54,860 nucleotides of DNA from a virus (Duplodnaviria > Caudoviricetes): positions 1 through 54,860 of the IMG/VR virus record IMGVR_UViG_3300025875_000032; one strand, written 5' to 3'. Within the stretch, counting starts at the first letter, position 1. The number at the start of each line of letters is the position of its first letter. The notes under the pieces were generated by a model. It saw nothing but the letters and a program-made list of their open reading frames with translations. It searched no databases and was not told the origin of the DNA. The position numbers and the translations under genes are program-made. Below are positions 5,436-31,218 of the stretch, one piece after another.

Positions 5436-5445
5436 CGTCCAGCCC

Positions 5446-5673
5446 ATGCCCGCCGACGAGCAGACCGCCCGGAGTTCCGTCACGGAGCCCCGGGCGGTCT
5501 CACGTCCGGAGTCCGAGCTGCTCGACCGGATCGCCGACCTCGCCCGGTACGAGCTGGACGCCGCCGAGCTGCCCCTCGCCGACGGGTCCGTCGTCCGGAT
5601 CGTCCGCCTCGACGAGGTCGCCGAGTGGCTCCACGGGCTCGCCGTGCGCGCCCGAGGCGGATCGCACCTCTAG
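5446..5673 (+). CDS. hypothetical protein
   Basis: ATG 7 nt after TAGCGT; coding-like. Confidence 0.6.
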   Translation: MPADEQTARSSVTEPRAVSRPESELLDRIADLARYELDAAELPLADGSVVRIVRLDEVAEWLHGLAVRARGGSHL

Positions 5674-5700
5674 GGGTATCGGGGGGGCTACCCTCCTCGC

Positions 5701-6057: not shown

Positions 6058-6268
6058 GTGCGCGTACGGCGATCCCGAGCAGACCGCCCTCGCGCAGTAC
6101 GCGTGCTCCGGCCCGTGCGGGTGTTTCCTCCAGGCGCCCGGCGAGTGTCTGGAGTGCTGGAGCGCCCGTAAGACGTACACGGCGCGCGAGGTCGCGATGC
6201 TCGACGCCGACGACCCTCGCCGGCTCCAGGTCCGGCCGGACCGGAACCGGTGGACGCCGCGCCGGTGA
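6047..6268 (+). CDS. small Cys-rich protein
   Basis: GGAGG RBS; C...C...CLEC. Confidence 0.55.
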   Translation: MASECAYGDPEQTALAQYACSGPCGCFLQAPGECLECWSARKTYTAREVAMLDADDPRRLQVRPDRNRWTPRR

Positions 6269-6294
6269 GTAACGCCCCCGGTACTGTCGGGAGG

Positions 6295-6468
6295 GTGACG
6301 GGGGGGGAGCGGAACCGGTGGCTCCGCCCCCTCGCCGCAGGGCTGATCGCCCTCGCCCTGCTCCTCCTCGCCCTCCTGCTCCTCGACCGGGCCGGCGCGT
6401 ACCTCTCCTCGGACGACGTGGTCGGCGCGTTCGCCGTCGCGTTCCTCGTGGGGGCGATGCTCGCGTGA
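6295..6468 (+). CDS. small two-TM membrane protein
   Basis: Two hydrophobic segments; coupled to terminase start. Confidence 0.6.
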   Translation: MTGGERNRWLRPLAAGLIALALLLLALLLLDRAGAYLSSDDVVGAFAVAFLVGAMLA

Positions 6469-14155: not shown

Positions 14156-17100
14156 GTGTCGTTGCTCGACCTGTTCCGTCCCCGCCCGAGGACCTCGTCC
14201 CTCGCGGAGGCTCTGACCTCCCGCCTCCCCGCCCGAGGGTCCCTCGTCGCGTCGGCCGCCCTGCTCACGCCGCAGGAGGGGCTCCGCCTCGCGAAGGCGA
14301 GCAAGCGGCGCGAGTGGCAGCGGGCGTCGTTCGGGTACGCCCGCGCGCTGCCCGAGGTCGGGTACGCGATGCGGTTTCTCGCGAACAACGCCGCCCATAT
14401 CCGCCTGTTTGCCGGCGACCGCGCCCCCGCCGGCGACGAGGTCGTCGAGCTGACCGACGACTACGGGTGGACCGACGCCGGGAACGGCGTCGAGACGTAC
14501 GCCGAGGACGCCCTCCCCGAGGACCTCGTCGCCGCCGCGCGGCAGGCGGTCGACGAGCTGACCGGATACTCCCCCTCGGGCGGAGGCGCCGCCATCCTGT
14601 CGCCGCTGACCCGCAACTACGAGCAGGCCGGCGAGTGCTACCTCGTGGGCCGGTACTTCCCCGAGGCGAACGCCGGCGCCGGGCGCGAGGAGTGGGCGAT
14701 CCGCTCGATTTCCGAGCTGACGTTCGTCGAGGGGCGGTTCCGGGGGATGGACCCGGAACTCCCCCCCGGGTACTTCCGCCTCGTCACCGGGGAGGGGCGC
14801 GACGCCGAGGCAGTCGACCTCGACCCGTCCACAACGACTGTCTACCGCCTGTGGACGGCCGACGCCGAGTGGTCCTCCGAGCCGGACTCGCCCATGCGCT
14901 CCCTGATCGGCGTATGCGAGCGCCTGCTCCTGATCGAGAAGGGCGACGACGCCGCCCTCCGGTCCCGCGCGGCCGGGAACGGCGTCCTGTTGTGGCCCGA
15001 GGAGCTGGACTCCCTCCCCGACGACGAGGACGAGGAGGAGGACGAGTTCGACCGCGATTTCGTAACACAGCTAACGACGCCCCTCACGCTCGACGGGTCG
15101 GCCGCGCAGGTCGTCCCGATGATCAAGCGCGGCGCGTACCAGTACCTCGACCGGGTTCGTCACCTCACGTTCGGCCGCCCCCTCGACCCGCTCACGAACG
15201 AGCGCGAGGCGCGCCTCCTGACCCGCCTCGGGATCGGGCTCGACGTGCCCCCCGAGGTGATCACCGGGCTGTCCGACGTGAATCATTGGAACGCCTGGCA
15301 GATCAGCTCCGACACGTTCCGTCATCATCAGGAGCCGATCACGATCGCCGGCGTCGAGGCGCTGACCCTGTCGTACATGCGGACCCGGCTCCGGACCGCG
15401 AACCGGTGGGACGAGTCCCTGATCCGCCGCGTCGTCCTATGGTTCGACCCGTCCGGGCTCGTCGCCCCCGCCGATATGTCGGGCGCCGCGAACGACGCAC
15501 ACGATCGCGGACTGATCACGGACGAGGCGTACCTCCAGCTCCGAGGCATTGATGCGAGCATGGCTCCGCCGGAGGAGCAGGAGACGGGCTCCGACGGCGT
15601 CGGCGAGACGGGGCTCGACGTGGACCGCCTCCTCCAGGTCGCCACGATCGCCGACCGCCTGCTCCGCGCCGGGTACGCCCCCGACGACGTGAACCGGCAG
15701 CTCGGGCTCACGATCGCGCACACGGGCTCGATCCCCGGCGTCGCCTCCTCGACGCCCGCCGAGCTGCCCGCCGGGGGAGGGGCGGGGGAGGAGCCCGGCG
15801 ACGAGGCGACGACGCCCGAGGCGCCCCCGCTGCCCGAGCTGCCGGCCGCGTCCGGCGCCCCCCGCGCAATCGTCGCCGCTGCCGGCCCGACCGATCGGCA
15901 GCGACGCCTCGCCCGCCGGCTCGCCTCGATCGAGCGGACCCTCCGCGAGCGGATCGCGGCAGCAGCGGACGCCGCCGTCCTCCGCGCCCTGGAGCGCGCC
16001 GGGAACCGCGCACGCGCCGCCGCGCAGCGCAACGACGCCGCCCGCGACGCCGTCCAGGGGCAGCCCGCCGAGACGGTCGTCGCCTCCCTCGGGCGGACGA
16101 TGGTCGCCGCCCTCGGGCTGGAGGAGCAGCAGCTCCTCGCCGAGGCGTTCGGCCGGCTCCGCGAGCAGTACGCCGAGTGGACCGCGTCGGCCGCCGAGGA
16201 GGCGCTCGACACGGCCGCGCAGCTCGCCGGGCTCGACCGCTCCGACCCGTCCGTCGCCGCGCAGCTCGGCACGCTCCGCGACCGGTTCGCCGAGAACGCC
16301 GACGCCTCGTGGCCCGTCCTGGAGGGCGGGCTCCGCGACCTCGCCGCCGAGCGCCTGTACGACCCGGACCCGAACGTCGACCCGCTCGGCGAGCTGCCCT
16401 CCTCGATCGTCCCGCCCGGGATCGTCCGCGACGCCCTCGCGGTCGCCGGAGGAGTCCCCGGCGACTCCTCCGGCACCGGCCCCCGGAACGGGCTCACCTC
16501 CGGGGACCTCCTCGACGGGTTCCTCCGCGAGCACGGGCAGGAGGTCGTCGAGTACGAGTGGGCGTACGGGATCAGCTCCCGCCCGTTCCCCCCGCACGCC
16601 GACCTCGACGGCGTCGTGTTCGCCGGGTTCGACGACGCCGTCCTGTCCACCTCGGGCACCCGGGGCGAGTGGATCGGCGGGTCGTTCGCCCCCGGCGATC
16701 ATCGCGGCTGTCACTGCGATTACGTCCCGGTCTACGCCGACGCCCGGGACACGCGCGCCGAGCTGGAGGCGATCGGCGAGCGGGCGTACGTCGAGCAGAA
16801 CCCGGACCTCCCGCTCCCGACCCGGCAGGCGACGAGCGACGAGCGCGTGTACCGCGACCCGACCGGCCGGCCCGAGCAGCGCCCCTCGGCGACCGTCGAG
16901 GCAGCACGGGCGGTCCGCAATGGTCCCCCGGTCGTCGTCCCGCCGGCGGAGCCCGTCCCCCCGCGCCGGGTGGCTGCTCGCGGCCGGACCCGGCAGGCCG
17001 CGACGGACGAGGCGGGTATCCCGATGCGCCTCGATCACACGTACCTGTCGTCCCTCACGGACGAGCAGATCGACGACCTGTACGCGCATCTTGCCGTCCG

Positions 17101-17653
17101 GCAGGACTCCCTCGACCCGCGCGAGGGGCAGCGATGGGACGACCTCGACGCGTTCACGACGTACGGGCAGGAGCAGGAGCGCCTCGGCGACGAACTCGCC
17201 GAGCGCATGGCCGGCGACGAGGAGTGGCAGAACGCGTACGCCGCCCTCGACGAGCGCCTCGGCCGGCCCGGCGTCACTCACCCGCGCGTCGGCGGTCGAG
17301 GGTCCCGCGACGGGACGCCGACCCGCGCCGAGGTCCAGGAGGAGTACGCCCTGTTCGTCGAGCAGCAGCTCGTCGCCCTGGAGCGGCACGCCCTCACGCA
17401 CGGGATCACCCGCGCCGGGCAGGCGCGCGGAATCTCGTACCGCGACCTCCTGACCGGGGACATTCGGCTCGTCTACCGGTACGCCTCCCCGGAGACACTG
17501 GAGTTCCTGGAGACGAACCGCCGCGTCTCCTGGACGGAGTTCTATTTCGCCCGCACGGGCAAGGGGAACGCCGACCTCGCCCGGCGGCAGTACGAGGCGA
17601 ACGCCCGGATCAACAGGGACAAGACGAACAAGCAGAAGGGGAACCGGAAGTGA
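14156..17653 (+). CDS. portal protein fused to MuF-like minor head domain plus C-terminal extension
   Basis: N-terminal WQ....Y....EVGY....AN....RL and NHWNAWQI resemble cluster-B-like actinophage portals; YEW.Y.....F.PH..LDG...PGDH.GC.C is a MuF motif. Confidence 0.8.
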   Translation: MSLLDLFRPRPRTSSLAEALTSRLPARGSLVASAALLTPQEGLRLAKASKRREWQRASFGYARALPEVGYAMRFLANNAAHIRLFAGDRAPAGDEVVELTDDYGWTDAGNGVETYAEDALPEDLVAAARQAVDELTGYSPSGGGAAILSPLTRNYEQAGECYLVGRYFPEANAGAGREEWAIRSISELTFVEGRFRGMDPELPPGYFRLVTGEGRDAEAVDLDPSTTTVYRLWTADAEWSSEPDSPMRSLIGVCERLLLIEKGDDAALRSRAAGNGVLLWPEELDSLPDDEDEEEDEFDRDFVTQLTTPLTLDGSAAQVVPMIKRGAYQYLDRVRHLTFGRPLDPLTNEREARLLTRLGIGLDVPPEVITGLSDVNHWNAWQISSDTFRHHQEPITIAGVEALTLSYMRTRLRTANRWDESLIRRVVLWFDPSGLVAPADMSGAANDAHDRGLITDEAYLQLRGIDASMAPPEEQETGSDGVGETGLDVDRLLQVATIADRLLRAGYAPDDVNRQLGLTIAHTGSIPGVASSTPAELPAGGGAGEEPGDEATTPEAPPLPELPAASGAPRAIVAAAGPTDRQRRLARRLASIERTLRERIAAAADAAVLRALERAGNRARAAAQRNDAARDAVQGQPAETVVASLGRTMVAALGLEEQQLLAEAFGRLREQYAEWTASAAEEALDTAAQLAGLDRSDPSVAAQLGTLRDRFAENADASWPVLEGGLRDLAAERLYDPDPNVDPLGELPSSIVPPGIVRDALAVAGGVPGDSSGTGPRNGLTSGDLLDGFLREHGQEVVEYEWAYGISSRPFPPHADLDGVVFAGFDDAVLSTSGTRGEWIGGSFAPGDHRGCHCDYVPVYADARDTRAELEAIGERAYVEQNPDLPLPTRQATSDERVYRDPTGRPEQRPSATVEAARAVRNGPPVVVPPAEPVPPRRVAARGRTRQAATDEAGIPMRLDHTYLSSLTDEQIDDLYAHLAVRQDSLDPREGQRWDDLDAFTTYGQEQERLGDELAERMAGDEEWQNAYAALDERLGRPGVTHPRVGGRGSRDGTPTRAEVQEEYALFVEQQLVALERHALTHGITRAGQARGISYRDLLTGDIRLVYRYASPETLEFLETNRRVSWTEFYFARTGKGNADLARRQYEANARINRDKTNKQKGNRK

Positions 17654-17895
17654 CCGCGAGCCCGCCCTCCGCCCGCTGGAGCGCCTCCGGGGAGCTGCTC
17701 GCCCTCGTCGCCTCCGCGCCCGTCCCGGAGCCCTCCGAGGAGCAGGTCGAGGCGTACGACGCCGGCCGCGCCGCGTACGGCGCCGACCTTCCCTCGACAG
17801 ACTGCCCGCACGAGCCGACCTCCGACCTCGGGACCCTGTGGCTCCGGGGGTACGTGCTCGCCCGCCGCGATGATCAGTACGGTCCGGTCCGATGA
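17650..17895 (+). CDS. Rmf/CrpP-fold small protein with GELLALVA leader
   Basis: AYDAGRAA......DCP.........WLRGY resembles the ribosome modulation factor pattern G..AG.....CPY....W..GW. Confidence 0.65.
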   Translation: MTASPPSARWSASGELLALVASAPVPEPSEEQVEAYDAGRAAYGADLPSTDCPHEPTSDLGTLWLRGYVLARRDDQYGPVR

Positions 17896-17906
17896 CAGGA
17901 GACAAC

Positions 17907-19475
17907 ATGCCCCGCACCCGCCGACCGCTCGGTTCCGAGCGGTTCGCCCGGTTCGACGGAGGCGAGCTGCTCGCCCTCGTCGCGACCGCCCCCGTCGAGG
18001 TCGAGGACCCGCCGGCCGTCGAGGTCGTCGAGGTCGAGGAGCAGGCGCCCCCGCCCGCCGAGCGCACGCCCGAGGACCAGCAGCTCGACCCGCCGGCCGG
18101 GGGCGTCGCGTTCACCTCGCCGGCCGTCGTCCTGGAGGGATGGGAGACGAGCGACGGGCGGTACATCGAGCCCGGGTCGCTCGGGCGCCGCGACCTCCCT
18201 CAGACCCTTATGGCGATGCTCCGCAACCCGGACGGCGGGTTCTCCGGGCACGACGCCGCGATCGTGTGCGGCCGGATCGACTCCCTGGAGCGGTACGACG
18301 CCTCCGCCGAGCTGAACCGCGAGACGGGGCAGCCGTACGGGCCGGGCGTGTTCGCCTGGAGGGCGACCGGATGGATCGTCCCGAACGACGACCAGCCCGG
18401 CTCGCAGGCGACCCTCGACTACGTCCGCGATCAGGTCCTCCGGGGCGTGTCCGTCGACCTCGGCGAGGTCCGCGCCGAGTGGATCGTCCTGGAGGAGGAC
18501 GAGGAGGGGTTCCCCGAGCGCGAGAGGATGGTCGTCACGGCCGCGTCGCTCGCGCAGTTCACGATCACGCCGTTTGCCGCGTTCCCGGGGGCGTACATCG
18601 TCCTGGACGAGGGGCAGGGCGCCGCCGACGCGGGCGTCGAGCCCCCCTCGACGGAGGTCGTCCCGATCGCCGCGTCCGGGCTCCGCATCCTCCAGCCCGA
18701 GCGCGGCCGGCGGGCGCTCGTCGCGTCCCTCGCCGCCGACGCCGACACGGTCGCCCCCGTCGTCCCGCCCCGGGGATGGTTCGCCCGGCAGGAGGTCGCC
18801 GACCCGGCCCGACACGTGTACCTCGGGCGGGACCGGACCGGCCGCCCGACCGGGCAGGTTTGGGGCTACCTCGCGCAGTGGGGCGTCCCGCACGCCGGGA
18901 TCATGGACCGCGAGGTGTACGCCCCCCGGCTCGGGCCGGACGGGTACCGGACGTTCCACTCGCAGGGCTCCGTGTTCACGGAGGAGGGCGAGGAGGTCCC
19001 GACCGGAATCCTCACGTTCGGCGGGGGGCACGCCTCGACCGACCTCGGCGTGATCCCCGCCCTCGCGCACTACGACTCCGCCGGCTCCGCGTACGCCGAC
19101 GTGGTCCTCGGCGAGGACGAGTTCGGACCCTGGTTCGCCGGCGCGATGCGTCCGCACCTCACCCGGCAGCAGGTCGAGGAGTTCGGCCGGCACCCGCTGT
19201 CCGGGGACTGGAGGGCGAACCCGGGCGATCAGAACGTCCGGCTCGTCGCCGCCCTGTGCGTCAATACGCCCGGGTTCCCGATCCGGGGACACTCGTACCT
19301 CACGGCCGCCGGTGGGCGGACCCTGCTCGCGGCCGGCTCCGCGCCGCTCGTCCGCCGCTCGCAGCAGGGGCGCGGGCACGACGAGGACGCCGTCCGCCGC
19401 GTCGTCGACGACCGGATGCGGCCGGTACTGGCCGCCGCTGCTCGGGCAGGGCTCGCCCGGCTCCGCCGACCGTAG
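17907..19475 (+). CDS. capsid maturation (prohead) protease
   Basis: AGGAG RBS; EG.ETSDGR, GH..A..CGRI, RGVSVDL, P..AF motifs; LSGDWR and LVAAL.VN.PGFP. Confidence 0.8.
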   Translation: MPRTRRPLGSERFARFDGGELLALVATAPVEVEDPPAVEVVEVEEQAPPPAERTPEDQQLDPPAGGVAFTSPAVVLEGWETSDGRYIEPGSLGRRDLPQTLMAMLRNPDGGFSGHDAAIVCGRIDSLERYDASAELNRETGQPYGPGVFAWRATGWIVPNDDQPGSQATLDYVRDQVLRGVSVDLGEVRAEWIVLEEDEEGFPERERMVVTAASLAQFTITPFAAFPGAYIVLDEGQGAADAGVEPPSTEVVPIAASGLRILQPERGRRALVASLAADADTVAPVVPPRGWFARQEVADPARHVYLGRDRTGRPTGQVWGYLAQWGVPHAGIMDREVYAPRLGPDGYRTFHSQGSVFTEEGEEVPTGILTFGGGHASTDLGVIPALAHYDSAGSAYADVVLGEDEFGPWFAGAMRPHLTRQQVEEFGRHPLSGDWRANPGDQNVRLVAALCVNTPGFPIRGHSYLTAAGGRTLLAAGSAPLVRRSQQGRGHDEDAVRRVVDDRMRPVLAAAARAGLARLRRP

Positions 19476-19502
19476 GGTCCCCGGGGGACTACTGTCCGGG
19501 GG

Positions 19503-20741
19503 GTGAGTCGCGAGGAGGATCGCCCCGGGATCGTCGAGCGGGCGTTCGACCGCTGGAGGGTCCGCCTCGCGACGAAGCTCCTCGGGTGGGCGTTCCCCCT
19601 CGCCCTCGTCGCCCTGCTCCTCCTGTGGTTCGCACGCCGGCCGCGACTGCTCCTCGGAGTGATCGCGGCCGGCGTCGCCGTGTACGGGTGGCAGCGGTAC
19701 GGGTGGCTCCCGTTCGCCGTGCTCGCCGTGCTCGTCCTCGCCCCGTTCACGTCCGCTCGGTTCCGAGCGGTCGCCCGAGCGGCAGCACGACGGGCCGGGT
19801 ACGCCGCGCTCGCCGTCGTTGCCGACCCGCTCCGCCGGCCCGTCCCCCTACCCGCCCCCGCCGGGGCGACCCTGGAGGACCTCGGCGCCGTCACGGTCGG
19901 GCGCCGCGAGAACGGCGACCCGCTCGACCTCGCCGTGTGGCGCCCCGGGCGGGGGACGACACACCTCCTCGTCGCCGGCGTCACCGGCTCCGGGAAAGGC
20001 TCCGCAGTCTGGAGCCTCCTCGCCGGGCTCGGGCCGGCGATCCGCGACGGGCTCGTCGCCGTGTGGGCGGTCGACCCGAAGGGCGGAGCCGAACTCGGCG
20101 GGGGGCTTCCCCTGTTCGACCGGTTCGTGTGCGGGGGACCGACGCGCGACGGGTCCCCCTGGCAGACCGCGATCGCCGACCTCCTCGACGAGGCGGTCGG
20201 CGGGATGCAGGCGCGCCTAGTCGCCATGCGCGACCCGGCCCGCCCCGGCGGTCCCGTCCGCGTCCACACGCCGACGCCGGCGGAGCCCGTGATCCTCCTC
20301 GTCGTCGACGAGGTCGCCTCGATCACCGCGTACGCCCCGACGCCGATCCGGACCCGCGTCGAGAACTCCCTCTCCCTCCTCCTGTCGCAGGGGCGCGCGG
20401 CCGGCGTGTCCGTCGTCTCCTGTACGCAGGACCCACGGAAGCAGACCCTCGCGTTCCGGGACCTGATCCCCGAGCGGGTCGCCCTCCGCACGGCGGAGCC
20501 CGTCGCCGACCTGATCCTCGGGCCGGGGATGCGCGAGCGCGGGGCGCTCACGGAGCAGATCGACCGGCGCCTCGCCGGCGTCGGGTACCTCGTCGACGAG
20601 CGGTCCGCCGAGCCCGTCCGCGTCCGGTTCGCGTACGTCGACGACGCGCAGCTCGCCAACCTCGGGCGCCGGTACGCCCCCTCCCGCGCCGTGCTCGTCG
20701 ACGAGCCCCTCCAGGCGACCTCGACGCGGGTCCCGTCGTGA
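19503..20741 (+). CDS. FtsK/SpoIIIE DNA translocase of AICE Tra/TraB type
   Basis: N-terminal TMs; HLLVAGVTGSGKGS Walker A, VDPKGG.EL, LVVDE Walker B, LLSQGRAAG...TQDPRK, EPVRVR.AYV.D. Confidence 0.9.
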   Translation: MSREEDRPGIVERAFDRWRVRLATKLLGWAFPLALVALLLLWFARRPRLLLGVIAAGVAVYGWQRYGWLPFAVLAVLVLAPFTSARFRAVARAAARRAGYAALAVVADPLRRPVPLPAPAGATLEDLGAVTVGRRENGDPLDLAVWRPGRGTTHLLVAGVTGSGKGSAVWSLLAGLGPAIRDGLVAVWAVDPKGGAELGGGLPLFDRFVCGGPTRDGSPWQTAIADLLDEAVGGMQARLVAMRDPARPGGPVRVHTPTPAEPVILLVVDEVASITAYAPTPIRTRVENSLSLLLSQGRAAGVSVVSCTQDPRKQTLAFRDLIPERVALRTAEPVADLILGPGMRERGALTEQIDRRLAGVGYLVDERSAEPVRVRFAYVDDAQLANLGRRYAPSRAVLVDEPLQATSTRVPS

Positions 20742-21004
20742 GGGGACGCCTCCGCCGCGCTCGCGCCTCCGCGCTCGTCCTGGCCCTCGCGCTCGTCCTC
20801 GCCGGCGCCGCGTACCTCGCGCTCCGGGCGCTGGACCCGCGCCCGTGGGTCGCCCTCGTCGGCGCGTGCGGTCCGCTCCTGATCCCCGGGCTCCCGGCCG
20901 CCCTCATGCTCGCCGCGACCCTCCGACACGGCGACCCGTACGACGTGTCGCACCGGTACCCGCCGGGCTCGCACCTCGGGAGGAGTGTCGGTCCCCGCGA
21001 GTAG
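20738..21004 (+). CDS. two-TM membrane protein coupled to the translocase
   Basis: GTGA overlap; two hydrophobic segments. Confidence 0.6.
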   Translation: MRGRLRRARASALVLALALVLAGAAYLALRALDPRPWVALVGACGPLLIPGLPAALMLAATLRHGDPYDVSHRYPPGSHLGRSVGPRE

Positions 21005-21044
21005 GGTTCGCCGTGTATAAATAGGGGGCACCCGCTCCCACGCC
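21005..21044 (+). promoter_or_regulatory. conserved phage promoter element
   Basis: GGTTCGCCGTGTATAAATAGGGGGCAC...TCCCACGCC. Confidence 0.85.
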
Positions 21045-21057
21045 TACCAGAGGACCC

Positions 21058-21585
21058 GTGACCATGATCGACAACGAGCAGCAGATCGACCACGCCGAGC
21101 ACGCCGCCGTCCGCGCCGAGTCCGAGCGCGAGAACCGCGAGGAGCAGGCGCACGCCGACCTCGTGACCGCGACCGTCCAGCACCTCCGCGCCCTCGGGAC
21201 CGCGAGCTACCTCGACGCGCAGGCGTCCCTCGCCCGGTTCGCCGAGGAGGTCCGGCTCCGCCTCGCCCCGAACGCGCACCGGTACGAGCTGCTCGCCCGG
21301 CAGCAGCACGTCGCCCTCCTCGCCCCGACGACCGCCTCCTCGATCGAGGGCGCCGGCTCGTACGACCTCGCCGAGGTCGCCCGGGTCGCCGCCCGCGCCT
21401 ACGCGACGACGCACCGGTCCCCCCGGGACGGCGACCTCCTGAACCGCGCGCTCGCGCACGCGGTCGCCCGGGTCGCCGACGCCGTCGCCGAGGTCGCCCA
21501 CCACGCGCAGCAGGCCGCGACCGACCGCGAGGTCGAGCAGCACGAGCGCGACCTCGCCGAGCGCGACGCCGGCTCCGAGCTGTGA
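21058..21585 (+). CDS. hypothetical helical protein
   Basis: AGAGGA RBS; coding-like. Confidence 0.7.
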   Translation: MTMIDNEQQIDHAEHAAVRAESERENREEQAHADLVTATVQHLRALGTASYLDAQASLARFAEEVRLRLAPNAHRYELLARQQHVALLAPTTASSIEGAGSYDLAEVARVAARAYATTHRSPRDGDLLNRALAHAVARVADAVAEVAHHAQQAATDREVEQHERDLAERDAGSEL

Positions 21586-21875
21586 TCGCGACCGTGTTCG
21601 CCGTCGTCCTCGCGAAGCGCACCGCGTCCGGAACCGCGCTCACCGTGAACCGTCGCCCGCACGACGCCGCCCCGCTCGTCCTGTCCCTCCACGCGAGCCG
21701 GCAGGCGGCCGACCGGCGCCTCGTCGAGGTCGCCCGCGCCGAGTGGGACTCCGACGAGTCGAACCTCGCCTACGCCTACGGGCCGGCCGACGCGTGGGAG
21801 GACGCAAAGCTCCTGGAGCACATGCGCGACCTCGGATACCTCGCGACCGTGACCGAGCAGGTCGTCGAGCTGTGA
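21582..21875 (+). CDS. hypothetical protein
   Basis: GTGA-coupled. Confidence 0.65.
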   Translation: MIATVFAVVLAKRTASGTALTVNRRPHDAAPLVLSLHASRQAADRRLVEVARAEWDSDESNLAYAYGPADAWEDAKLLEHMRDLGYLATVTEQVVEL

Positions 21876-22189
21876 GCGTCGTCACCGGGACGACCCGGGC
21901 GCTCGCCTGCCTCGCCCTCGGGCATGACGAGGACGGGTCCGTCCGCTGCCCCTCCTCCGACGAGGACCTCGTCCGGCAGCTCGTCGAGCAGGTCCAGGCG
22001 CTCCGCGTCGCCGCCGGCGTCGTCGAGGAGTCCGAGGTCGACCGCGCCGAGCGGATCGAGGTCGTCGAGGACGTGCTGTCGGACGTGCTCGTCGACTCCG
22101 ACGCCGTGATCGACCCGGAGGTCGCTCGCCGGCTCGTCGAGCGCCTCGACGGCGCCGGGTGGACCCTGCACCCGGTCCGCCGTCCGTGA
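21872..22189 (+). CDS. hypothetical protein
   Basis: GTGA-coupled. Confidence 0.6.
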   Translation: MSVVTGTTRALACLALGHDEDGSVRCPSSDEDLVRQLVEQVQALRVAAGVVEESEVDRAERIEVVEDVLSDVLVDSDAVIDPEVARRLVERLDGAGWTLHPVRRP

Positions 22190-22587
22190 CCGGGGAGGAC
22201 CGGACCGCGCTCGCGTGGGCTGCCGGCGTGTTCGACGGCGAGGGGTATATCGGGTCGAAAATCCGAAAGACGCCCGGCGGTCGCCGGAACCCGTACATCC
22301 ATATGTCCGTGTCTCAGTACCACGACGCCGAGGTCGTCGAGCGGTTCACGGCCGCCCTCGGCATCGGTACGTGCTCTGTTCGTCACCGGGAGACGCCGCG
22401 CGGACCCGTGGTCGAGTCCCTGTGGCGCGTCCAGAGTTTCGAGAAGGTGCAGGCTGCCGTCGCGCTGCTCTGGCCGTGGCTCAGTGGGCCGAAACGGCGG
22501 CAGGCCGTCCAGGCGTTGCAGTCGTTCCACGGGGAGCGGGAGGTCCTCGGCGTCCGTGAGTGGCGCCGTCGAACCGCGTCGGCGTGA
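22186..22587 (+). CDS. LAGLIDADG homing endonuclease
   Basis: WAAGVFDGEGYI motif; L.PWL..PKR.QA end. Confidence 0.85.
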   Translation: MTGEDRTALAWAAGVFDGEGYIGSKIRKTPGGRRNPYIHMSVSQYHDAEVVERFTAALGIGTCSVRHRETPRGPVVESLWRVQSFEKVQAAVALLWPWLSGPKRRQAVQALQSFHGEREVLGVREWRRRTASA

Positions 22588-22629
22588 CACTCGGAGGGGG
22601 GACTCGCGCATCGGGTCTCCCCTCCGAGC

Positions 22630-22669
22630 GGTTACCCGTGTATAAAAGGGGGGCACACGTTCCCACGCC
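22630..22669 (+). promoter_or_regulatory. conserved phage promoter element
   Basis: GGTTACCCGTGTATAAAAGGGGGGCAC...TCCCACGCC. Confidence 0.85.
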
Positions 22670-22680
22670 TGGAGGTTCCC

Positions 22681-22857
22681 GTGTCCCACTCCACCCGCCC
22701 CCGCCGGCTCGCCGACGGGCAGCAGCTCGCGCTCCTGCCGACCTCGATCGAGGAGGACGGCGATCAGCTCGACCTCGTCGAGCACGCCGGCGTCGAGACG
22801 CTGTCGCCCACCCCGGCCGCCGCCGGCCCCCTCGTCCTGCTCCCCCTGGAGGGCTGA
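22681..22857 (+). CDS. 58-aa protein with two QLxL motifs (absent from ORF track)
   Basis: GGAGG RBS directly after the promoter element; MSHSTRPRRLADGQQLALLPTSIEEDGDQLDLVEH... Confidence 0.7.
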   Translation: MSHSTRPRRLADGQQLALLPTSIEEDGDQLDLVEHAGVETLSPTPAAAGPLVLLPLEG

Positions 22858-22860
22858 CCG

Positions 22861-23226
22861 GTGGCGAAGCGCGGGCAGCTCCAGCCCTGGAGGGTCCGGT
22901 ACGAGTGGCCCGGCGGAACCTCCGGCACGAACTCGCACGTCACCCGCGAGGACGCCGTGTTCGCCGCCCGCCGGCAGGTCGAGCGCGTGAGCCCGCTCAC
23001 CGGCCGCCGCGAGTGTGTCGCGACCGTGTCGCACCGCGACCGCCCCGAGGAGGTCGAGGAGTTCGCCTCGACGGCGACGGTCTGCGAGTGGTGCGACGCC
23101 GAACTCGACGGCGTCGACGACCCGGTCGACGTGTGCGAGCCCGGGTGCGACTGCCCGCCCTGCTCCGTCGCCCGAGCCCTCGACGACGACGCCGACGCCT
23201 ACCGCGACCGGGTCCGGAACCCGTGA
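22861..23226 (+). CDS. hypothetical protein with Cys cluster
   Basis: GGAGGG RBS; CEWC...C..GCDC..C. Confidence 0.65.
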   Translation: MAKRGQLQPWRVRYEWPGGTSGTNSHVTREDAVFAARRQVERVSPLTGRRECVATVSHRDRPEEVEEFASTATVCEWCDAELDGVDDPVDVCEPGCDCPPCSVARALDDDADAYRDRVRNP

Positions 23227-23513
23227 CCGGCCACGCGCTCACGCCCTACGGGTACGCGACCGTCGCGCTCGCCGCCCGCGAGCCCGAGTGGGACCCGGCA
23301 TACGAGGACCCGGACGGGCTCCTCGACGACGCCGATCACGAGCCCGAGGAGGACCGCGACGCCCCGTCCCTCGACGAGGCGCTCGGCGTCCCCGTCGACA
23401 CGTACTGCCCGGACTGGCCGCACCGGTACGTGTGCCCGGAGTGCTCCGGGAATGGCTGCCGCGCCTGCTCGGGCACCGGTGAACGGGAGGACCGGCGCCC
23501 CTGCCGACACTGA
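23223..23513 (+). CDS. hypothetical protein with CxxCxGxG motifs
   Basis: CPECSGNGCRACSGTG. Confidence 0.6.
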   Translation: MTGHALTPYGYATVALAAREPEWDPAYEDPDGLLDDADHEPEEDRDAPSLDEALGVPVDTYCPDWPHRYVCPECSGNGCRACSGTGEREDRRPCRH

Positions 23514-23515
23514 TC

Positions 23516-23557
23516 CGCCGCAACTCCGCACGCGCACCCGCCCCGCTGTTCTACGGT
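23516..23557 (+). promoter_or_regulatory. CGCCGCAACTC-N25-TACGGT putative capsid operon promoter
   Basis: Shared motif and spacing with 13802 and 50414. Confidence 0.6.
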
Positions 23558-23692
23558 CCGTCCGTACGAGCAGCGGGGCGTCGCGCTACCTAGTGGCCCG
23601 CCTCGCCGCCCCCCGCCCATAGGGCGCCCGGGGGTACCGCTCGCAGACGACCGTCCGTACGTCTGTCGACGATCCCCGAGGAGGGGCAACCC

Positions 23693-25660
23693 GTGTCACG
23701 CAACCTGAACCGCCGCCCGAGCAGCACCCGGAGCCGCGTCCGGTTCGGCTCGTCCGGCGAGCTGCTCGCGCTCGTCGCCGACGCCCCCGAGTCGCCGCTC
23801 GCGTTCCTGGACACGCCGGAGGGCGCCGAGCCGCTCACCCGCGCGCAGATCGAGGAGTACCTCGCCGGACTGGACGCCGAGGCGCTCGGCGAGGTCGTCG
23901 AGGCCGCCCGCTCCGAGGCGGAGGGGATCGACGTTGCGACCGTCACCTCCGAGACGATCGAGCGGATCACGACCCTCGGCGACGCCGTCGAGGTCGCCGA
24001 GGGTCGCCTCCAGCAGATCGAGGCGGAGGAGGTCGAGCGGCAGCAGCGCGCCGCCGACGCGCTCCAGCGCCTCCAGCGCCCGGCCGCCGAGGGCGAGGGC
24101 GAGGGCGAGGGAACGGAGGGCGCCGAGGGCGCCGAGGGCGAGGGCGCCGAGGGCGCGAACGCCGAGCAGCCCGAGCCCGTCGCCGCCTCCGGGGGCACCC
24201 GCCCGCCGGCCGCCCGCCGGACGACCGTCCTCCCCCGCCCCGGCGCCTCCGGTGGCATGGGCTCCGGGACCGCTGCCGGCCGCACCGGTGGGACCGCCCC
24301 CGCGTACACGGCGCCGCAGGCGTCGAACGCCCTCGTCGCCTCCGCCGGTCTGGAGTCGATCGGGATCAACAACGGGTCGACGATCGAGTCGCCCCGGCAG
24401 CTCGGCGACGCGTTCGGGCTCCGGATCGACGCGCTCCGGCGCGGGCACGGGTCCGGCGCGGACGGCGAGCACCTCACCGTCGCGACCGTCCGGACCTCGT
24501 TCCCCGAGGAGCGGCGCCTCCGCGAGGGCGCCGTCGACCGGAACACGGCGCTCGTCGCCGCTGCCGTCACCCGCGAGAACCTCCTCGCGGCCGGCGCGCA
24601 CGCGTCCGGGAACGGCGCGATCGTCGCCGCCGGCGGTCTGTGCGGTCCGATCGACTCCCTGAACGACGTTCCCGTCCTCGGCTCGACCGCCCGGCCCGTC
24701 CGCGACGCGCTCGCGAACTTCGGCGCCGAGCGCGGGGGCGTCCGGTGGCGCGAGCACCTCTCGTTCGGCGACCTCGCCGCCGCCGTCGGGTTCTGGACCC
24801 TCGCCGACGACGAGGCAGCGGGCGACCCGGCGAACACGGTCGACGGCGTGTACGGCGGACCCGTCAAGCCGTGCGCCGAGGTCCTCTGCCCCGGCGAGGT
24901 CGAGGCGTACGTCGAGGCGATCACGCTCTGCCTCCTGTTCCGCAACGCCTCGGCGCGGTTCGACCCGGAGGGCACGGCCGCGAACATCACGGCCGCGCAG
25001 ATCGCGCACGCCCGGATCGCCGAGAACCGGCTCCTCTCGCAGCTCGGCGCCCTCTCGACGACCGTCACGGGCGGGGAGGTCCTCGGCGCGCTCCGCGACC
25101 TGCTGACGTGGCTCGACCAGCTCCTCGCGCAGTACCGGTCGTTCTACCGGCTCGACGACACGATCGCCCTCCGGATGGTCCTCCCGCAGTGGGTCCGGCT
25201 CATGCTCCGCGCCGACCTCACCCGGGGCATGGCCGGCGACCTGGACGCGATCGCCGCGTCCGACGCGCAGATCGCCGGATGGTTCCAGACACGGGGCGTG
25301 AACATCACGTGGCACCTCGACGGGCTCGGCGCCCGGGGCGCTGCCGCCGGCGTGGCCCCCGCGATCCCCGCGCAGGCGTACGGGGCGTTCTCCCCGGCCG
25401 GCGCGGTCGCCGCGTTCCCGGCCGCGATCGAGGCGCTCCTGTGGGTCGAGGGCGACATGCTCCACCTCGACGGCGGAACCCTGGACCTCGGCGTCGTCCG
25501 CGACTCCACCCTGAACGCCCGGAACGAGTACAAGACGTTCAGCGAGTCGTGGGAGGGCGTCGCGCACCGGGGCGTCGAGGCGATCCGGGGCGTCGTGACG
25601 ACCCGGCCGCTCGGCATGGTCGCCGGCACCCGCGACACGGCCGCGATCCTGGCCGCCTGA
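23693..25660 (+). CDS. major capsid protein with N-terminal scaffold-like region
   Basis: GAGGAGG RBS; coiled-coil N-terminus, IVAAGGLCGP, RGG, KPC....CP, GG.LDLGVVRDSTLN..N.Y..FSE. Confidence 0.9.
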   Translation: MSRNLNRRPSSTRSRVRFGSSGELLALVADAPESPLAFLDTPEGAEPLTRAQIEEYLAGLDAEALGEVVEAARSEAEGIDVATVTSETIERITTLGDAVEVAEGRLQQIEAEEVERQQRAADALQRLQRPAAEGEGEGEGTEGAEGAEGEGAEGANAEQPEPVAASGGTRPPAARRTTVLPRPGASGGMGSGTAAGRTGGTAPAYTAPQASNALVASAGLESIGINNGSTIESPRQLGDAFGLRIDALRRGHGSGADGEHLTVATVRTSFPEERRLREGAVDRNTALVAAAVTRENLLAAGAHASGNGAIVAAGGLCGPIDSLNDVPVLGSTARPVRDALANFGAERGGVRWREHLSFGDLAAAVGFWTLADDEAAGDPANTVDGVYGGPVKPCAEVLCPGEVEAYVEAITLCLLFRNASARFDPEGTAANITAAQIAHARIAENRLLSQLGALSTTVTGGEVLGALRDLLTWLDQLLAQYRSFYRLDDTIALRMVLPQWVRLMLRADLTRGMAGDLDAIAASDAQIAGWFQTRGVNITWHLDGLGARGAAAGVAPAIPAQAYGAFSPAGAVAAFPAAIEALLWVEGDMLHLDGGTLDLGVVRDSTLNARNEYKTFSESWEGVAHRGVEAIRGVVTTRPLGMVAGTRDTAAILAA

Positions 25661-29835: not shown

Positions 29836-30120
29836 CTAGCTCGGGCCGGGGCACCCGCGCACCCGGCAGCCCCGGAACCGCTCGTGAGGGCAGCGGGGGG
29901 CGTACACGCGCCACGCTGCCGACCCGACCCGCACCGTCGGCCGCTCCCGCGTCGGTACCGCCTCCGGGTCCCACGCGTCGCCGGCCGGCTCGTCCTCGAC
30001 CTCGGCGAGGTCGGGCATCGCGACCGGGACCGGGATCGGGGGCGTGTGCTGCCGCCGCTCGTCGTACACGACGAACCGCGACCCGTCCCGCACGTACAGG
30101 ACCTCCTCGACCGCGCTCAC
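29836..30120 (-). CDS. hypothetical protein
   Basis: GTGA-coupled; VSAVEEVLYVRDGSRFVVYD...CPH....C....C. Confidence 0.55.
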   Translation of the reverse strand: MSAVEEVLYVRDGSRFVVYDERRQHTPPIPVPVAMPDLAEVEDEPAGDAWDPEAVPTRERPTVRVGSAAWRVYAPRCPHERFRGCRVRGCPGPS

Positions 30121-30215
30121 GACCGACGCCCCCGGCAGCGGAGGTGCATCCCGTACAGGGTCCGCTCGCCGTCCCCGAGGGGCAGCGGGCAGCGCGGGCA
30201 CGCCGGCGCCGTCAC
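30117..30215 (-). CDS. 32-aa CxxC...HxxC peptide
   Basis: MTAPACPRCPLPLGDGERTLYGMHLRCRGRRS; GTGA overlaps at both ends. Confidence 0.5.
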   Translation of the reverse strand: MTAPACPRCPLPLGDGERTLYGMHLRCRGRRS

Positions 30216-30931
30216 GCCGTCACCTCGGCGGGGAAGTGAGCGCGCACCGTGCCGCGCTTGCCCTCGGCGCGGACGACGACGCCGTGACGGATCGCCCGAT
30301 TGAGCGCCCCGGACGCGGCGCCCTCACTCCAGCCTGCGACCGACGCGAGGTCGCCGAGCGTGAGCCCGCCCGCCGGCCGCCCCTCCAGGAGCCCGGCAGC
30401 AGCGCGCCGGACGTACTCCGCTGCCTGCTCCCATCGGGCGCCCTCGGGCGCCTCCAGGGCGACGACGGGCGCCTGCCGGCCCGTCCTCGACGAGCGGGAC
30501 CGGCCGTCCGCGCCCTCGACCCGCTCCGGCGCCGGGTCGAGGGTCCGGAGCGCCTCGTTCACCGCGTACGAGGAGACGCCGAGCCGCTCGCGGATCGCCC
30601 GCGTCGCCGCGCCCTGCTCGCGGAGACTCCAGACGAGCGCGTTCCGCTCGGCGACCGCCTCGGGCGAGCCCGTGAGGCGGAGCGCCTGGAGGTCCCCGAG
30701 CCACGCCTCGACCGCCTCGTGCCACGTCGAGTACCCGGCCGTGAGGTGAGCACCGGCCGCCCGGAGGCGGGCGAGGCGCTGGAGCGGCCGGAGCAGCTCG
30801 GCGCGGATCGCCGCGACCTCGACCTCGATTTCGGCGAGGGACAGGGGCGCGACGTACTCCTCGATCGGTATCGCGCGGGCGTAGGCGCCGCGCACGACGG
30901 CGAGGTCGACGACCTCGGCGAGGGCGCTCAC
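30212..30931 (-). CDS. DNA-binding protein with two HTH domains
   Basis: GYSTW, LREQGAATRAIRERLGVS..AV, RVEGADGR, LT..DLA...GWS.GAAS..L. Confidence 0.75.
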   Translation of the reverse strand: MSALAEVVDLAVVRGAYARAIPIEEYVAPLSLAEIEVEVAAIRAELLRPLQRLARLRAAGAHLTAGYSTWHEAVEAWLGDLQALRLTGSPEAVAERNALVWSLREQGAATRAIRERLGVSSYAVNEALRTLDPAPERVEGADGRSRSSRTGRQAPVVALEAPEGARWEQAAEYVRRAAAGLLEGRPAGGLTLGDLASVAGWSEGAASGALNRAIRHGVVVRAEGKRGTVRAHFPAEVTA

Positions 30932-31218
30932 GCGGACCACGCCGTACGGAGGTCGCGGTTCACGGCAGCGGCAGCGGCAGCGGCGGACCCGTGCTCGGCG
31001 ATCAGCTCGCGGGCCGGGACGCCGGACAGGAGGTCGATCAGGGTCCCGTCGTCCTCGCCGAGGACCTCGTCGGTCGAGGTGATCGAGGCGAACACGGCGA
31101 GGCGGGGGACGTACACGGCCGGCCCGGAGACGACGCCGGCGAGGTCGAGGACGACGGTCCCGAACAGGCGGGTCGCGGCGGACCGGAGGTCGGCAGCGGT
31201 AACGCGGGGGGCGCTCAT
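30928..31218 (-). CDS. hypothetical protein
   Basis: ATG start, coding-like, coupled to the HTH gene. Confidence 0.65.
   Translation of the reverse strand: MSAPRVTAADLRSAATRLFGTVVLDLAGVVSGPAVYVPRLAVFASITSTDEVLGEDDGTLIDLLSGVPARELIAEHGSAAAAAAAVNRDLRTAWSA

Follow-up and report, generated by a model that had tools for sequence, protein, structure and literature searches.

The window, meaning the whole stretch of DNA analysed, is the complete, very GC-rich, 54.9-kb genome of an uncultured tailed phage. On its plus strand lies a tra-like gene (19503..20741) encoding a 412-aa ATPase of FtsK/SpoIIIE fold, followed by a gene for an 88-aa protein with two transmembrane (TM) segments (20738..21004, plus strand). 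The initial annotation had placed this pair inside a phage head module, and the neighbours agree with that placement: the head maturation protease gene lies upstream (17907..19475, plus strand; phrog_18402 at 2e-31, phrog_859 at 2.8e-68) and the major capsid protein gene downstream (23693..25660, plus strand; phrog_777 at 3.6e-66), with about seven small ORFs separating the capsid gene from the two-TM gene. The capsid protein is 41% identical to capsid proteins of Arthrobacter phages, and phages with a related capsid gene infect Arthrobacter, Microbacterium, Gordonia and also Streptomyces. Capsid relatives, 27-40% identical, were found in 6 of 401 sampled actinomycete genomes and in none of five AICE-bearing genomes. 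The large terminase gene was located at 6465-8315 (phrog_38 at 5.3e-68), and a candidate lysis cassette, consisting of an endolysin gene (37549-38364) preceded by a 56-aa ORF, lies away from tra. The composition of tra is phage-like, as had been noted, with GC contents of 0.79, 0.55 and 0.94 at codon positions 1, 2 and 3, as in the adjoining genes. Of the pMR2 proteins only Tra matches the window, consistent with the earlier remark that no rep, int or xis flanks the gene, and the Phage_integrase, Resolvase, ParB_N and AAA_31 models gave no match in the window. Searches of the window for lysogeny, plasmid-replication and partition genes found none, and no tRNA genes were found in it.

The tra product is an intact FtsK/SpoIIIE ATPase, as first proposed. 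The ORF is full-length, and its product matches Pfam FtsK_SpoIIIE (PF01580) with 32 bits at a cut-off of 24. Walker A (G159-S167; 19977-20003, plus strand), Walker B (D269-E270; 20307-20312, plus strand) and the residues Q309, D310 and R312 were invariant in alignments of 29 and of 107 homologues. Both Walker motifs lie within a RecA-like motor domain of the FtsK beta type (residues ~125-391; 19875..20675, plus strand), which was delimited by invariant columns and by the match of the structural model. The protein thus shows the features expected of the FtsK/SpoIIIE superfamily: the Pfam score, Walker A, Walker B, the QxxR motif and the RecA-like fold. An AlphaFold2 model had a mean pLDDT of 89.7, and a Foldseek search with it against the PDB returned the FtsK motor 6t8o_A as the top match (E 1.5e-15), the order of matches being FtsK motors on DNA, next EccC, the conjugation coupling protein TcpA and EssC. 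The TM-score between the model and the FtsK motor was ~0.5 over 286-300 columns. By its family and fold the product would be expected to form a hexamer and to pump DNA. Hydrophobic helices at the N-terminus (residues 26-85; 19578..19757, plus strand) are presumed to form the membrane anchor claimed by the initial annotation; Kyte-Doolittle peaks were seen at residues 26-44 and 67-85, and also at 49-63 with a 15-residue window, and the model has helices at 10-45, 47-66, 69-83 and 85-106. The protein was said to end directly after the ATPase, which is true of the window protein and of the whole family as well (median tail of 1 residue among 120 homologues). Judging by these homologues, the C-terminal wHTH is missing family-wide and has not been lost through a phage-specific truncation.

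The suggestion that the unit has its own leaderless promoter can be kept at the level of a candidate. The start coordinate given originally, 19490, is the first T of a TACTGT word (19490..19495, plus strand), which could serve as a -10 hexamer of the TANNNT type; it stands 7 nt before the GTG start and would give a leaderless transcript. The TANNNT word is the actinobacterial -10 element. In all 8 related contigs the T, A, T and T of the hexamer word are invariant, as are two C letters at the hexamer, and its distance to the start codon is a constant 7 nt, even with two extra genes inserted upstream. This TANNNT layout recurs before 9 of the 75 predicted gene starts, although the plus strand holds only 37 TANNNT words. 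No promoter was found at tra by a scan for the sigma-70 consensus, which is blind to the leaderless TANNNT type. That scan, together with the GTATAAAT elements, had been the basis for regarding tra as the promoterless tail of a portal-protease operon, an idea which was dropped in view of the conserved hexamer and its genome-wide layout. A hairpin around TACTGT was rejected as well, with z-scores of 0.46 to -3.05 only and 57.1% of cells paired, a value as high being reached by 157 of 500 shuffles; in 5 of 8 contigs the polarity of the G/C arms is exchanged, and the folds range from -10 to -19 kcal/mol.

Downstream, the two-gene unit is bounded by a conserved intergenic element (GGTTCGCCGTGTATAAATAGGGGGCAC..TCCCACGCC; 21005..21050, plus strand), one of five copies, all of which could be aligned. 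Its pattern gave 6 matches at 5 places, all on the plus strand, with 0.13 expected, and no match to it was found in Rfam. This element stands where a T-rich terminator was sought after the unit and none was found. Examined as a possible moron, the unit has a conserved candidate promoter and no T-rich terminator. Its presence does not vary, tra being there in all 7 relatives seen, although the island between protease and capsid in which the unit lies is variable among the related phages. Near tra there is no cluster of repeated 8-mers of the kind expected for clt- or KOPS-like words, and the strongly strand-skewed 8-mers of the window are GCC-rich coding words.

Coupling of the second gene to tra, also part of the initial annotation, is evident from the GTGA overlap, in which the GTG start at 20738 overlaps the tra stop codon TGA at 20739-20741. 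The 88-aa product has two hydrophobic segments and a conserved tail, RHGDPYDVSHRY. Its homologues are confined to this phage clade, 13 being found by a word search and 12 by a profile search of 1.84 billion representatives. The gene is present in the related contigs L002, L003, L004, L171 and L172, and absent after tra in L006; in L173 and L174, the nearest AICEs, nothing comparable follows tra. Neither word nor profile searches detected any Spd relatives. The gene overlap and the two TM segments would suit a Spd protein, but sequence relatives occur only within the phage clade, and calling the two-TM protein Spd-like is an analogy only. Spd families are described as unrecognisable by sequence (PMC4447253).

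There is little doubt that the gene is an AICE transfer gene of the pMR2 clade, captured by a tailed-phage lineage and kept as its own small unit. Over residues 126-404 its product shares 45.2% identity with pMR2 Tra (E 2e-55), and it is 54-56% identical to the AICE copies L173 and L174, where rep, or rep and int, adjoin tra. With a family profile, members scored above 200 bits (L002-L019 and L082-L092), or 188-213 bits for the interrupted L093 and L094, and pMR2 Tra scored 367, while the outsiders scored 34-75 (chromosomal FtsK and other FtsK-like proteins), 72 (a cluster J mycobacteriophage protein) and 105 (pSVH1 TraB). The comparison proposed initially, a phylogeny with AICE Tra, chromosomal FtsK and EccC, grouped the protein within AICE Tra, far from FtsK and EccC. 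The IQ-TREE analysis put it in a clade of 12 rows (SH-aLRT 99), which also holds the 7 syntenic phages, two AICEs (L173 and L174), L007 and L008 and which nests in a 45-row family holding pMR2 and 26 other AICE copies. Of the label "AICE/TraB-type" the first part therefore stands, narrowed to AICE Tra of the pMR2 clade, and the second does not, as the score with the NCBIfam plasmid_TraB model (NF041214) was 38.6 bits at a cut-off of 800. In the genome loci of cellular relatives rep adjoins tra in 12 of 13 cases, most of them also with reg, xis and int, and among 80 metagenome loci 32 have a pMR2-like rep. It was Ghinet et al. 2011 (PMC3218068) who defined a pMR2 clade among the Tra proteins of AICEs. 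Conjugation of pMR2 is listed as "nd" by te Poele et al. 2008 (PMC2440964), so that a transfer role for the pMR2 Tra clade rests on context and on other clades. The literature searches turned up no description of an AICE-type Tra in the structural region of a tailed phage.

With the AICE Tra proteins of this clade (type, pMR2 of Micromonospora rosaria, NC_006910) the phage protein shares homology over its whole length, the anchor with its W..RRPR motif and the motor, and the C-terminal gamma/wHTH domain is missing in family and phage protein alike. However, the AICE proteins consist of anchor, alpha-like module and motor, whereas the phage protein has the anchor and the motor and no alpha-like module. 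The gene surroundings differ too: AICEs have the layout reg-tra-rep-xis-int between att sites, whereas the phage has tra only, amid head genes, followed by the clade-specific two-TM gene and preceded by a promoter candidate of the type found before other phage genes. The TraB proteins of Streptomyces plasmids (pSVH1, pSG5, pIJ101 KilA) are, like the phage protein, membrane-associated FtsK-like ATPases, and they work with small membrane Spd proteins encoded by overlapping genes, but they are only 26-30% identical to it. TraB binds clt through its C-terminal wHTH, whereas the phage protein ends 1-20 residues past the motor. TraB alone is reported to suffice for dsDNA transfer between hyphae and to bind 8-bp clt repeats, and spreading across the cross-walls to be mediated by spd genes, which are small, diverse and linked by overlaps of stop and start codons (PMC4447253).

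The FtsK-like proteins of cultured actinobacteriophages (cluster J, e.g. Omega gp203, and Streptomyces phages) are likewise phage-borne ATPases of the FtsK/SpoIIIE family. Those of cluster J are described as close to chromosomal FtsK, without a membrane domain and with the gamma domain kept (PMC3706429), and in our trees the cluster J protein clustered with chromosomal FtsK, whereas the window protein did not. Three queries against INPHARED recovered no pMR2-type family member, the best results being 28.5% identity, no match and 31.7% identity. Chromosomal FtsK/SpoIIIE has the RecA-like motor fold in common with the phage protein, which lacks the 4TM-linker-alpha-beta-gamma layout and scored 21.1 bits with the FtsK model PRK10263 (cut-off 1566). 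EccC and EssC of type VII secretion (T7SS) have three tandem ATPase domains as opposed to one, and the T7SS models scored 23.2 (EccCb, cut-off 346.55) and 16 (EccCa, cut-off 509.15) on the phage protein. A precedent for a phage that is transferred by conjugation is the Streptomyces plasmid-phage pZL12, or phiZL12, with a size of about 90 kb. A tra gene is needed for its conjugal transfer (Zhong et al. 2010, as cited in PMC3583192), it appears as a phage and conjugally transferable element also in PMC4487206 and PMC5431353, and the citing papers present it as a plasmid prophage with ParA/ParB. In contrast to pZL12 with its partition genes, no genes for partition, plasmid replication or integration were found in the 54.9 kb of the window phage.

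The position of the gene is conserved. It lies between protease and capsid in 7 related phage contigs (L002-L006, L171 and L172) and stays there down to a capsid identity of 50%, at which the Tra proteins are 55% identical. A single-protein scan of viral contigs matched nothing, and an alignment-based scan was required. One origin for the 8 syntenic rows was not rejected (p-AU 0.645). Both the survey of relatives and the dN/dS analysis had been suggested at the outset, and the latter showed that selection on the gene is not relaxed. NG86 omega, which is inflated in absolute terms and is read only relative to the neighbouring genes, was 0.40-0.51 for tra and 0.27-0.72 for portal, protease and capsid; the small ORFs gave 0.87-1.65 (g21058 and g21872) and 0.53-0.88 (g21582). 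Within tra the N-terminal anchor evolves faster (0.91 and 1.3) than the remainder (0.39 and 0.49), and the ATPase part is constrained about as strongly as the portal, protease and capsid genes.

An FtsK alpha-like module of ~95 aa, which precedes the motor domain in relatives, has been lost in the subclade of the window. Among the 120 homologues, only P0001-P0007 are full-length without this module, five more that lack it being fragments, and these seven variants, 66-85% identical, keep every motif. The family-profile alignment to FtsK 2IUU starts inside the alpha-like module, and 379 columns of the alpha-containing homologue P0011 were aligned to 6t8o_A, compared to 293 of the window protein. 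The alpha-containing form occupies the same place in the sister phages L003, L004, L172, L005 and L006. In other phage lineages family members are found elsewhere in the genome, among replication or early genes, and that of L007 is at the border of a prophage region, beside an integrase. The loss of the module and the family members in unrelated phage lineages had both been overlooked in the earlier reading.

The most likely role of the unit, to which we give a probability of roughly one in three, is the passage of phage DNA from cell to cell or across septa independently of virions, and it was ranked ahead of interference with rival elements and of a host-directed kil function. The product would be a membrane-anchored, ATP-driven ring translocase for dsDNA with the FtsK fold. 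We infer that this pump, perhaps together with the two-TM protein, would be lodged in the membrane where cells touch or are divided by septa or cross-walls and would push replicated phage dsDNA into the adjoining compartment or cell. Infection could then pass on with no need of virions, in the way that AICEs and plasmids of Streptomyces travel within the mycelium. As the family lacks the gamma/wHTH domain, it would not be the pump that selects the DNA. Several observations speak against a role in transfer. A mycelial habit of the host is only presumed, and phages with a related capsid gene infect Arthrobacter, Microbacterium and Gordonia besides Streptomyces. The alpha-like module, kept by every other full-length homologue, is missing, which may alter ring formation or the handling of DNA. 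The two-TM protein has no detectable link to Spd and is missing in L006, and clt-like repeats do not cluster near tra. Finally, with no lysogeny, plasmid-replication or partition genes found, delivered DNA would just start a lytic cycle, with at most a presumed benefit over virions.

Alternatively, the gene could act in conflicts between mobile elements. A captured pump, especially one without the alpha-like module, might jam or poison the rings formed by the Tra proteins of resident AICEs or plasmids, preventing these elements from leaving or entering the cell, or exclude superinfecting phage DNA at the membrane. The ancestry in AICE Tra, the moron-like setting, with a candidate promoter ahead of the gene and a variable accessory island around it, and the omega values of 0.91 and 1.3 in the fast-evolving anchor would all fit such a role, the loss of the alpha-like module could give a mixed and inactive ring, and family members are differently placed in other phages, including L007 with its neighbouring integrase. 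However, a poison subunit would not need the invariant ATPase motifs and the constrained motor observed here, the presence of the alpha-containing form at the same site in sister phages implies a role older than the deletion, and matches in PADLOC were weak and generic (mad8 50.5 bits, SspH 22-23 bits). We consider this explanation unlikely on balance. Membership in a defence system was discarded as a separate candidate, in view of the same PADLOC result.

A function directed at the host appears just as unlikely. Here the pump would arrest growth, permeabilise the membrane, or disturb septation and chromosome segregation, thereby favouring phage production. Unregulated traB is described as toxic and as part of Kil-Kor pairs (PMC4447253), and no pMR2-like regulator adjoins the phage tra; moreover, papers on Streptomyces phages have listed ftsK-like phage genes as possible manipulators of development (PMC10117723, PMC13587820, bioRxiv 10.1101/2024.02.16.580700). 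On the other hand, the protein belongs to the conjugative Tra clade and not to the chromosomal FtsK type, the phage has a candidate lysis cassette elsewhere, and toxicity alone need not require the conserved arginine and Walker motifs, though it may.

Handling of DNA inside the cell is considerably less probable. The pump would move or position replicating or concatemeric phage DNA within one cell, for example from compartment to compartment of an infected hypha or to where particles are assembled, with no transfer to uninfected cells, as might be suggested by the location beside head assembly genes, kept in 7 relatives, and by the view of Hatfull and colleagues that the cluster J FtsK-like proteins presumably bind and translocate phage DNA (PMC3706429). 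The genome has a separate large terminase, though, the linkage to head genes is not general, given that other phage lineages carry their family member among replication or early genes, and the membrane anchor suggests a task across the membrane. That the gene is a functionless passenger decaying after its transfer from an AICE, as the lost alpha-like module and the variable island might suggest, is highly improbable and already largely refuted by the seven full-length alpha-less variants with all motifs intact, by retention in phages as far apart as 50% capsid identity, by omega values of the motor like those of structural genes and by the confident structural model.

A more far-reaching reading, which we put forward tentatively and hold somewhat less probable than the transfer role itself, is that an apparently virulent phage clade has acquired a second, virion-free route. 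The anchor-and-motor pump and its two-TM partner would then form a minimal conduit that lets replicating phage genomes through cross-walls or cell contacts, allowing a spread resembling that of plasmids in pocks, and members of this Tra family would have been taken up independently, to the same end, by several other actinophage lineages.

The finding shows gene flow from AICEs to phages; the opposite direction, from phage to AICE, has been discussed for int and rep modules (te Poele et al. 2008, PMC2440964). With the family profile, genes of conjugative type can be told from those of chromosomal type, which are now lumped in phage annotation as "FtsK-like DNA translocase". The alpha-less form represents a natural minimal FtsK-type motor, useful for asking what purpose the alpha ring serves. 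Phage spread is assumed to need virions, and for conjugation in actinomycetes a single FtsK-like protein is enough. With a protein of this kind kept under selection in a phage lineage, it becomes testable whether viral DNA can move from cell to cell through a conjugative pump, and whether pumps of this sort serve phages against competing mobile elements.

The gene tra, at 19503-20741 (+ strand), encodes a protein of 412 residues that scored above the Pfam FtsK_SpoIIIE cut-off. Its Walker A (G159-S167) and Walker B (D269-E270) motifs and residues Q309, D310 and R312 showed no variation across two homologue alignments (29 and 107 sequences), and two to three hydrophobic stretches were found within the N-terminal 100 residues. 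In the AlphaFold2 model (mean pLDDT 89.7) this hydrophobic region was built as helices 10-45, 47-66, 69-83 and 85-106, and the motor started at about residue 125. The closest solved structures were FtsK motor domains on DNA (E 1.5e-15), with further matches to EccC, the conjugation coupling protein TcpA, EssC and HerA. Codon-position GC was the same as in the neighbouring genes. The description of tra in the initial annotation, as an intact membrane-anchored FtsK/SpoIIIE ATPase of phage-like composition, was therefore confirmed.

The protein had also been called an AICE/TraB-type translocase (AICE, actinomycete integrative conjugative element), and only the AICE part of this name could be kept. 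Of the NCBIfam models, plasmid_TraB ranked first but reached 38.6 bits where the cut-off is 800, and EccC and FtsK models scored lower still. The top PLSDB match was Tra of Micromonospora rosaria pMR2 (45.2% identity, E 2e-55), a classic AICE whose record has the order regulator, tra, small genes, DUF2637, rep, xis, int. Ghinet et al. (2011, PMC3218068) name a pMR2 clade of AICE Tra, apart from the Tra of Streptomyces plasmids. In a large protein collection, full-length relatives had 408-415 residues at 66-85% identity, and many proteins of 470-510 residues were 45-74% identical over the motor. A profile built from the motor part gave >200 bits for viral loci L002-L019 and genome loci L082-L092, 188-213 bits for the interrupted copies L093 and L094, and 367 bits for pMR2 Tra. 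It gave 105 bits for pSVH1 TraB, 37 bits for pWTY27 TraB, 72 bits for the cluster J mycobacteriophage protein and about 34-75 bits for chromosomal FtsK and other FtsK-like proteins. A pMR2-like rep adjoined tra in 12 of 13 genome loci, most of which also had regulator, xis and int. Among 80 metagenome loci, 32 had rep, 38 had rep, regulator or xis, and three were syntenic with the window phage; tra alone was visible in another 34, most of them short. L010, a 24-kb contig listed as viral in IMG/VR, has the AICE gene order (tra, rep, int) and is probably a misfiled AICE. On pWTY27 (L164) a CDS annotated as phage major capsid protein (5117-6577) lies about 800 nt after traB, which the plasmid's authors took as a sign of plasmid-phage exchange (PMC3583192).

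Trees were calculated with FastTree (158 rows) and, for 49 rows of known context, with IQ-TREE (LG+C20, quick search). In both, chromosomal FtsK and the cluster J phage protein formed the outgroup, pSVH1 TraB was a long separate branch, and all remaining rows made up the family; the window Tra thus falls inside the AICE Tra family, as had been proposed. It formed a group of three rows with L002 and L171 (SH-aLRT 100), within a seven-row group of syntenic phages (SH-aLRT 99) and a twelve-row group (SH-aLRT 99) that adds L006, L007, L008 and the AICE copies L173 and L174. Constraining the eight syntenic phage rows together was not rejected and gave a better tree (lnL +4.10, p-AU 0.645). Since joining all 18 phage-borne rows cost 36.65 lnL units (p-AU 0.0255), the trees suggest that AICE-phage exchange occurred more than once, although the long branches call for caution.

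A feature missed by the initial annotation is the deletion of an alpha-like module. In every longer relative, anchor and motor are separated by about 95 residues that the window Tra lacks; with the family profile, this stretch aligns with the C-terminal portion of the Pseudomonas FtsK alpha domain (2IUU). In the model of an alpha-containing phage relative, P0011 (pLDDT 91.9), the module has the order four strands, two helices, two strands (residues 130-199); P0011 aligned to FtsK 6t8o_A over 379 columns and the window Tra over 293. Among the best 120 homologues the module was missing from only seven full-length proteins, P0001-P0007, and from five fragments. Because the seven form one subclade in the trees, a single in-frame deletion explains the loss, and because they are 66-85% identical with all motifs kept, the short form is maintained. 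The absence of a C-terminal wHTH had also been recorded, and the protein does end right after the motor. Across the 120 best homologues a median of one residue separates motor end and C-terminus, so this is an ancestral family trait and not a phage truncation.

The surrounding genome, mapped from third-position GC and PHROG scans, has a siphovirus-type layout with nearly all genes on the + strand and 70-78% GC in each 1-kb window. The record of 54,860 bases repeats 127 identical bases at both ends; 127 is a usual largest k-mer in assembly, and the repeat is read as the assembler overlap of a circularly assembled genome. The genes comprise a large terminase (6465-8315), a portal fused to a MuF-like part (14156-17653), a head protease (17907-19475, +), the capsid (23693-25660, +) followed by adaptor and tail proteins, tape measure (32346-34697), endolysin (37549-38364), then an Erf-type recombinase and a DnaC-like loader, and a small-terminase-like gene (53410-54282). 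No tyrosine or serine recombinase, ParB, ParA-like gene or tRNA gene was found in the window. Cultured phages are all distant (capsid identity at most 42%). The portal protein, of 1165 residues, extends at its C-terminus into a long region that matches Mu F weakly, and the capsid protein has an additional N-terminal stretch of about 220 residues, unmatched by its relatives, with a Glu/Gly-rich repeat in which the 8-mer CGAGGGCG occurs seven times around 23900-24350. Three opposite-strand ORFs lie amid the structural genes at 29836-31218 (- strand), one of them (30212-30940) encoding a MarR-type wHTH (E 2.6e-07); they may form a regulator or immunity cassette, though no integrase or partition gene was found in the window.

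Several words are also biased. Against 100 synonymous-codon shuffles of all + strand genes, hexamers were fully or nearly missing: GAGCTC (0 observed, 61.7 expected), CCGCGG (0, 93.9), GACGTC (0, 39.7), CTCGAG (0, 38.8), GACCCC (1, 57.6), GGCCTC (0, 52.9) and CCACCG (0, 43.5). This looks like restriction-site avoidance. On the whole + strand GGCGGC occurs 8 times and GCCGCC 173 times, and CGGCGGCG 0 times against 56 for CGCCGCCG; within genes, GGCGGC was found 7 times (81.3 +/- 7.9 expected) and GCCGCC 152 times (153.5 expected). The related contigs L003 (20 versus 157) and L006 (27 versus 169) show the same trend. This bias towards one orientation of a non-palindromic word may be analogous to the case of T7 and EcoP15I.

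Seven contigs (L002, L003, L004, L005, L006, which is L186, L171 and L172) share portal and protease with the window, and the capsid gene wherever they reach that far. In all seven tra follows the protease. L003 (7215-9382) and L171 (5423-8337) each have an insertion of two genes, weakly matching head-decoration or fibre proteins, between protease and tra, so the region is a variable island in which tra is constant. Between the window and L006 the capsids are 50% identical and the Tra proteins 55%. By NG86, whose absolute values are inflated at 95% GC3, omega was 0.40-0.51 for tra (five pairs) and 0.27-0.72 for portal, protease and capsid; for the small ORFs near tra it was 0.87-1.65 (g21058 and g21872) and 0.53-0.88 (g21582). 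YN00 gave 0.116 for tra, few pairs being computable. Within tra, evolution is fast in the anchor (omega 0.91 and 1.3) and slow in the motor (0.39 and 0.49). The survey of retention and dN/dS thus found tra kept in all seven contigs, at an omega within the range of the head genes.

Family members also occur in IMG/VR contigs unrelated to the window phage. In L007 the gene adjoins an integrase, at the border of a region that contains tape-measure and tail genes. Its neighbours are RecT, methyltransferase and DnaB genes in L008, and exonuclease, methyltransferase and ParB-like genes in L012-L014; in L018 it precedes terminase and portal. Soluble motor-only versions of about 310 residues, without anchor or alpha-like module, occur in a second phage lineage (L009 2209-3144, L015 9992-10924, L016 9986-10918). 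The L016 copy follows a primase, and the copies of L009 and L016 precede terminase and portal. Three queries of the deposited phage genomes in INPHARED found no family member.

A sigma-70 consensus scan of 17500-24000 gave no promoter match, and tra was first read as the tail of a portal-protease operon, a reading overturned by comparison of related contigs. In all eight, TACTGT (TAGTCT in one) stands 7 nt before the start codon, also in the two with other genes inserted upstream, where the spacer stays attached to tra. TANNNT lies 5-9 nt upstream of nine of 75 predicted gene starts (5446, 5701, 6295, 8992, 12541, 13852, 19503, 31375, 50463), out of 37 such words on the + strand, and the nine sites share the shape CCCCCGG-TAnnnT-C-N6-GTGAC. 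TANNNT near the start is the actinobacterial -10 and leaderless layout, which these sites fit; they suggest widespread leaderless transcription in this phage. The proposal that tra has its own leaderless promoter is thus supported comparatively, by the conserved spacing and the nine starts; a search for RNA runs containing the phage gave none. The hexamer is flanked by hairpin-like G/C arms, but a hairpin was supported neither by the z-scores of folding nor by a pair-count test. The tra stop codon overlaps the GTG of an 88-residue ORF (20738-21004, +) whose product has two hydrophobic segments, as annotated initially, and a strongly conserved tail, RHGDPYDVSHRY. A word search found 13 relatives, and a profile search of 1.84 billion representatives found 12; several of them share contigs with the phage Tra proteins. 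The gene is present in L002, L003, L004, L171 and L172 and missing after tra in L006, and no counterpart was seen after tra in the nearest AICEs. Thoma et al. (2015, PMC4447253) describe spd genes as small, diverse, overlapping at stop and start codons and unrecognisable by sequence, so the two-TM protein may be an analogue of Spd. This gene is directly followed by a roughly 50-nt conserved element that includes GTATAAATAGGGGG, one of five copies (GGTTcgCCGTGTATAAATAGGGGGCAC..TCCCACGCC; 10770, 21015, 22640, 41569 and 45172), all on the + strand and each about 40 nt before a gene block. Its pattern had six matches against 0.13 expected, no Rfam match and a weak consensus fold (-8.5 kcal/mol). 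The element may act as a promoter or operator specific to the phage.

An intact FtsK-fold motor, membrane-anchored and of conjugative (AICE) descent, has thus been retained under constraint by the phage clade, in a unit of two genes that has a conserved promoter-like word. Such Tra proteins are described as hexameric pores that move dsDNA between hyphae, and together with Spd proteins across cross-walls (PMC4447253, PMC3218068, PMC2440964). By analogy, the phage Tra could move phage DNA in the same way, which would give spread without virions; we put the probability of this at roughly 0.35. Against it, the alpha module of Tra is lost, a virulent phage would gain merely a short cut, and te Poele et al. 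(2008, PMC2440964) report the conjugation of pMR2 itself as never determined. That Tra interferes with other phages or with resident AICEs or plasmids is rather unlikely. Equally doubtful is a host-directed kil or developmental role. In favour of that role, unregulated traB is toxic (PMC4447253) and the AICE regulator gene is missing from the phage. FtsK-like genes known in actinophages are usually tied to host development or unexplained (PMC10117723, PMC13587820, 10.1101/2024.02.16.580700, PMC3706429); the cluster J proteins are of the chromosomal type. Intracellular DNA handling is improbable, and a decaying passenger, given the kept motifs and constraint, can practically be dismissed.

A precedent for the combination of phage and conjugative element is pZL12, according to papers that cite it a Streptomyces plasmid-phage with a tra gene (PMC3583192, PMC4487206, PMC5431353). 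In the literature searched, three features seem to be new: the alpha-less Tra derivative, the fixation of an AICE Tra of the pMR2 clade within the head region of phages that appear to be virulent, and the recurrence of the family across several lineages of phages.
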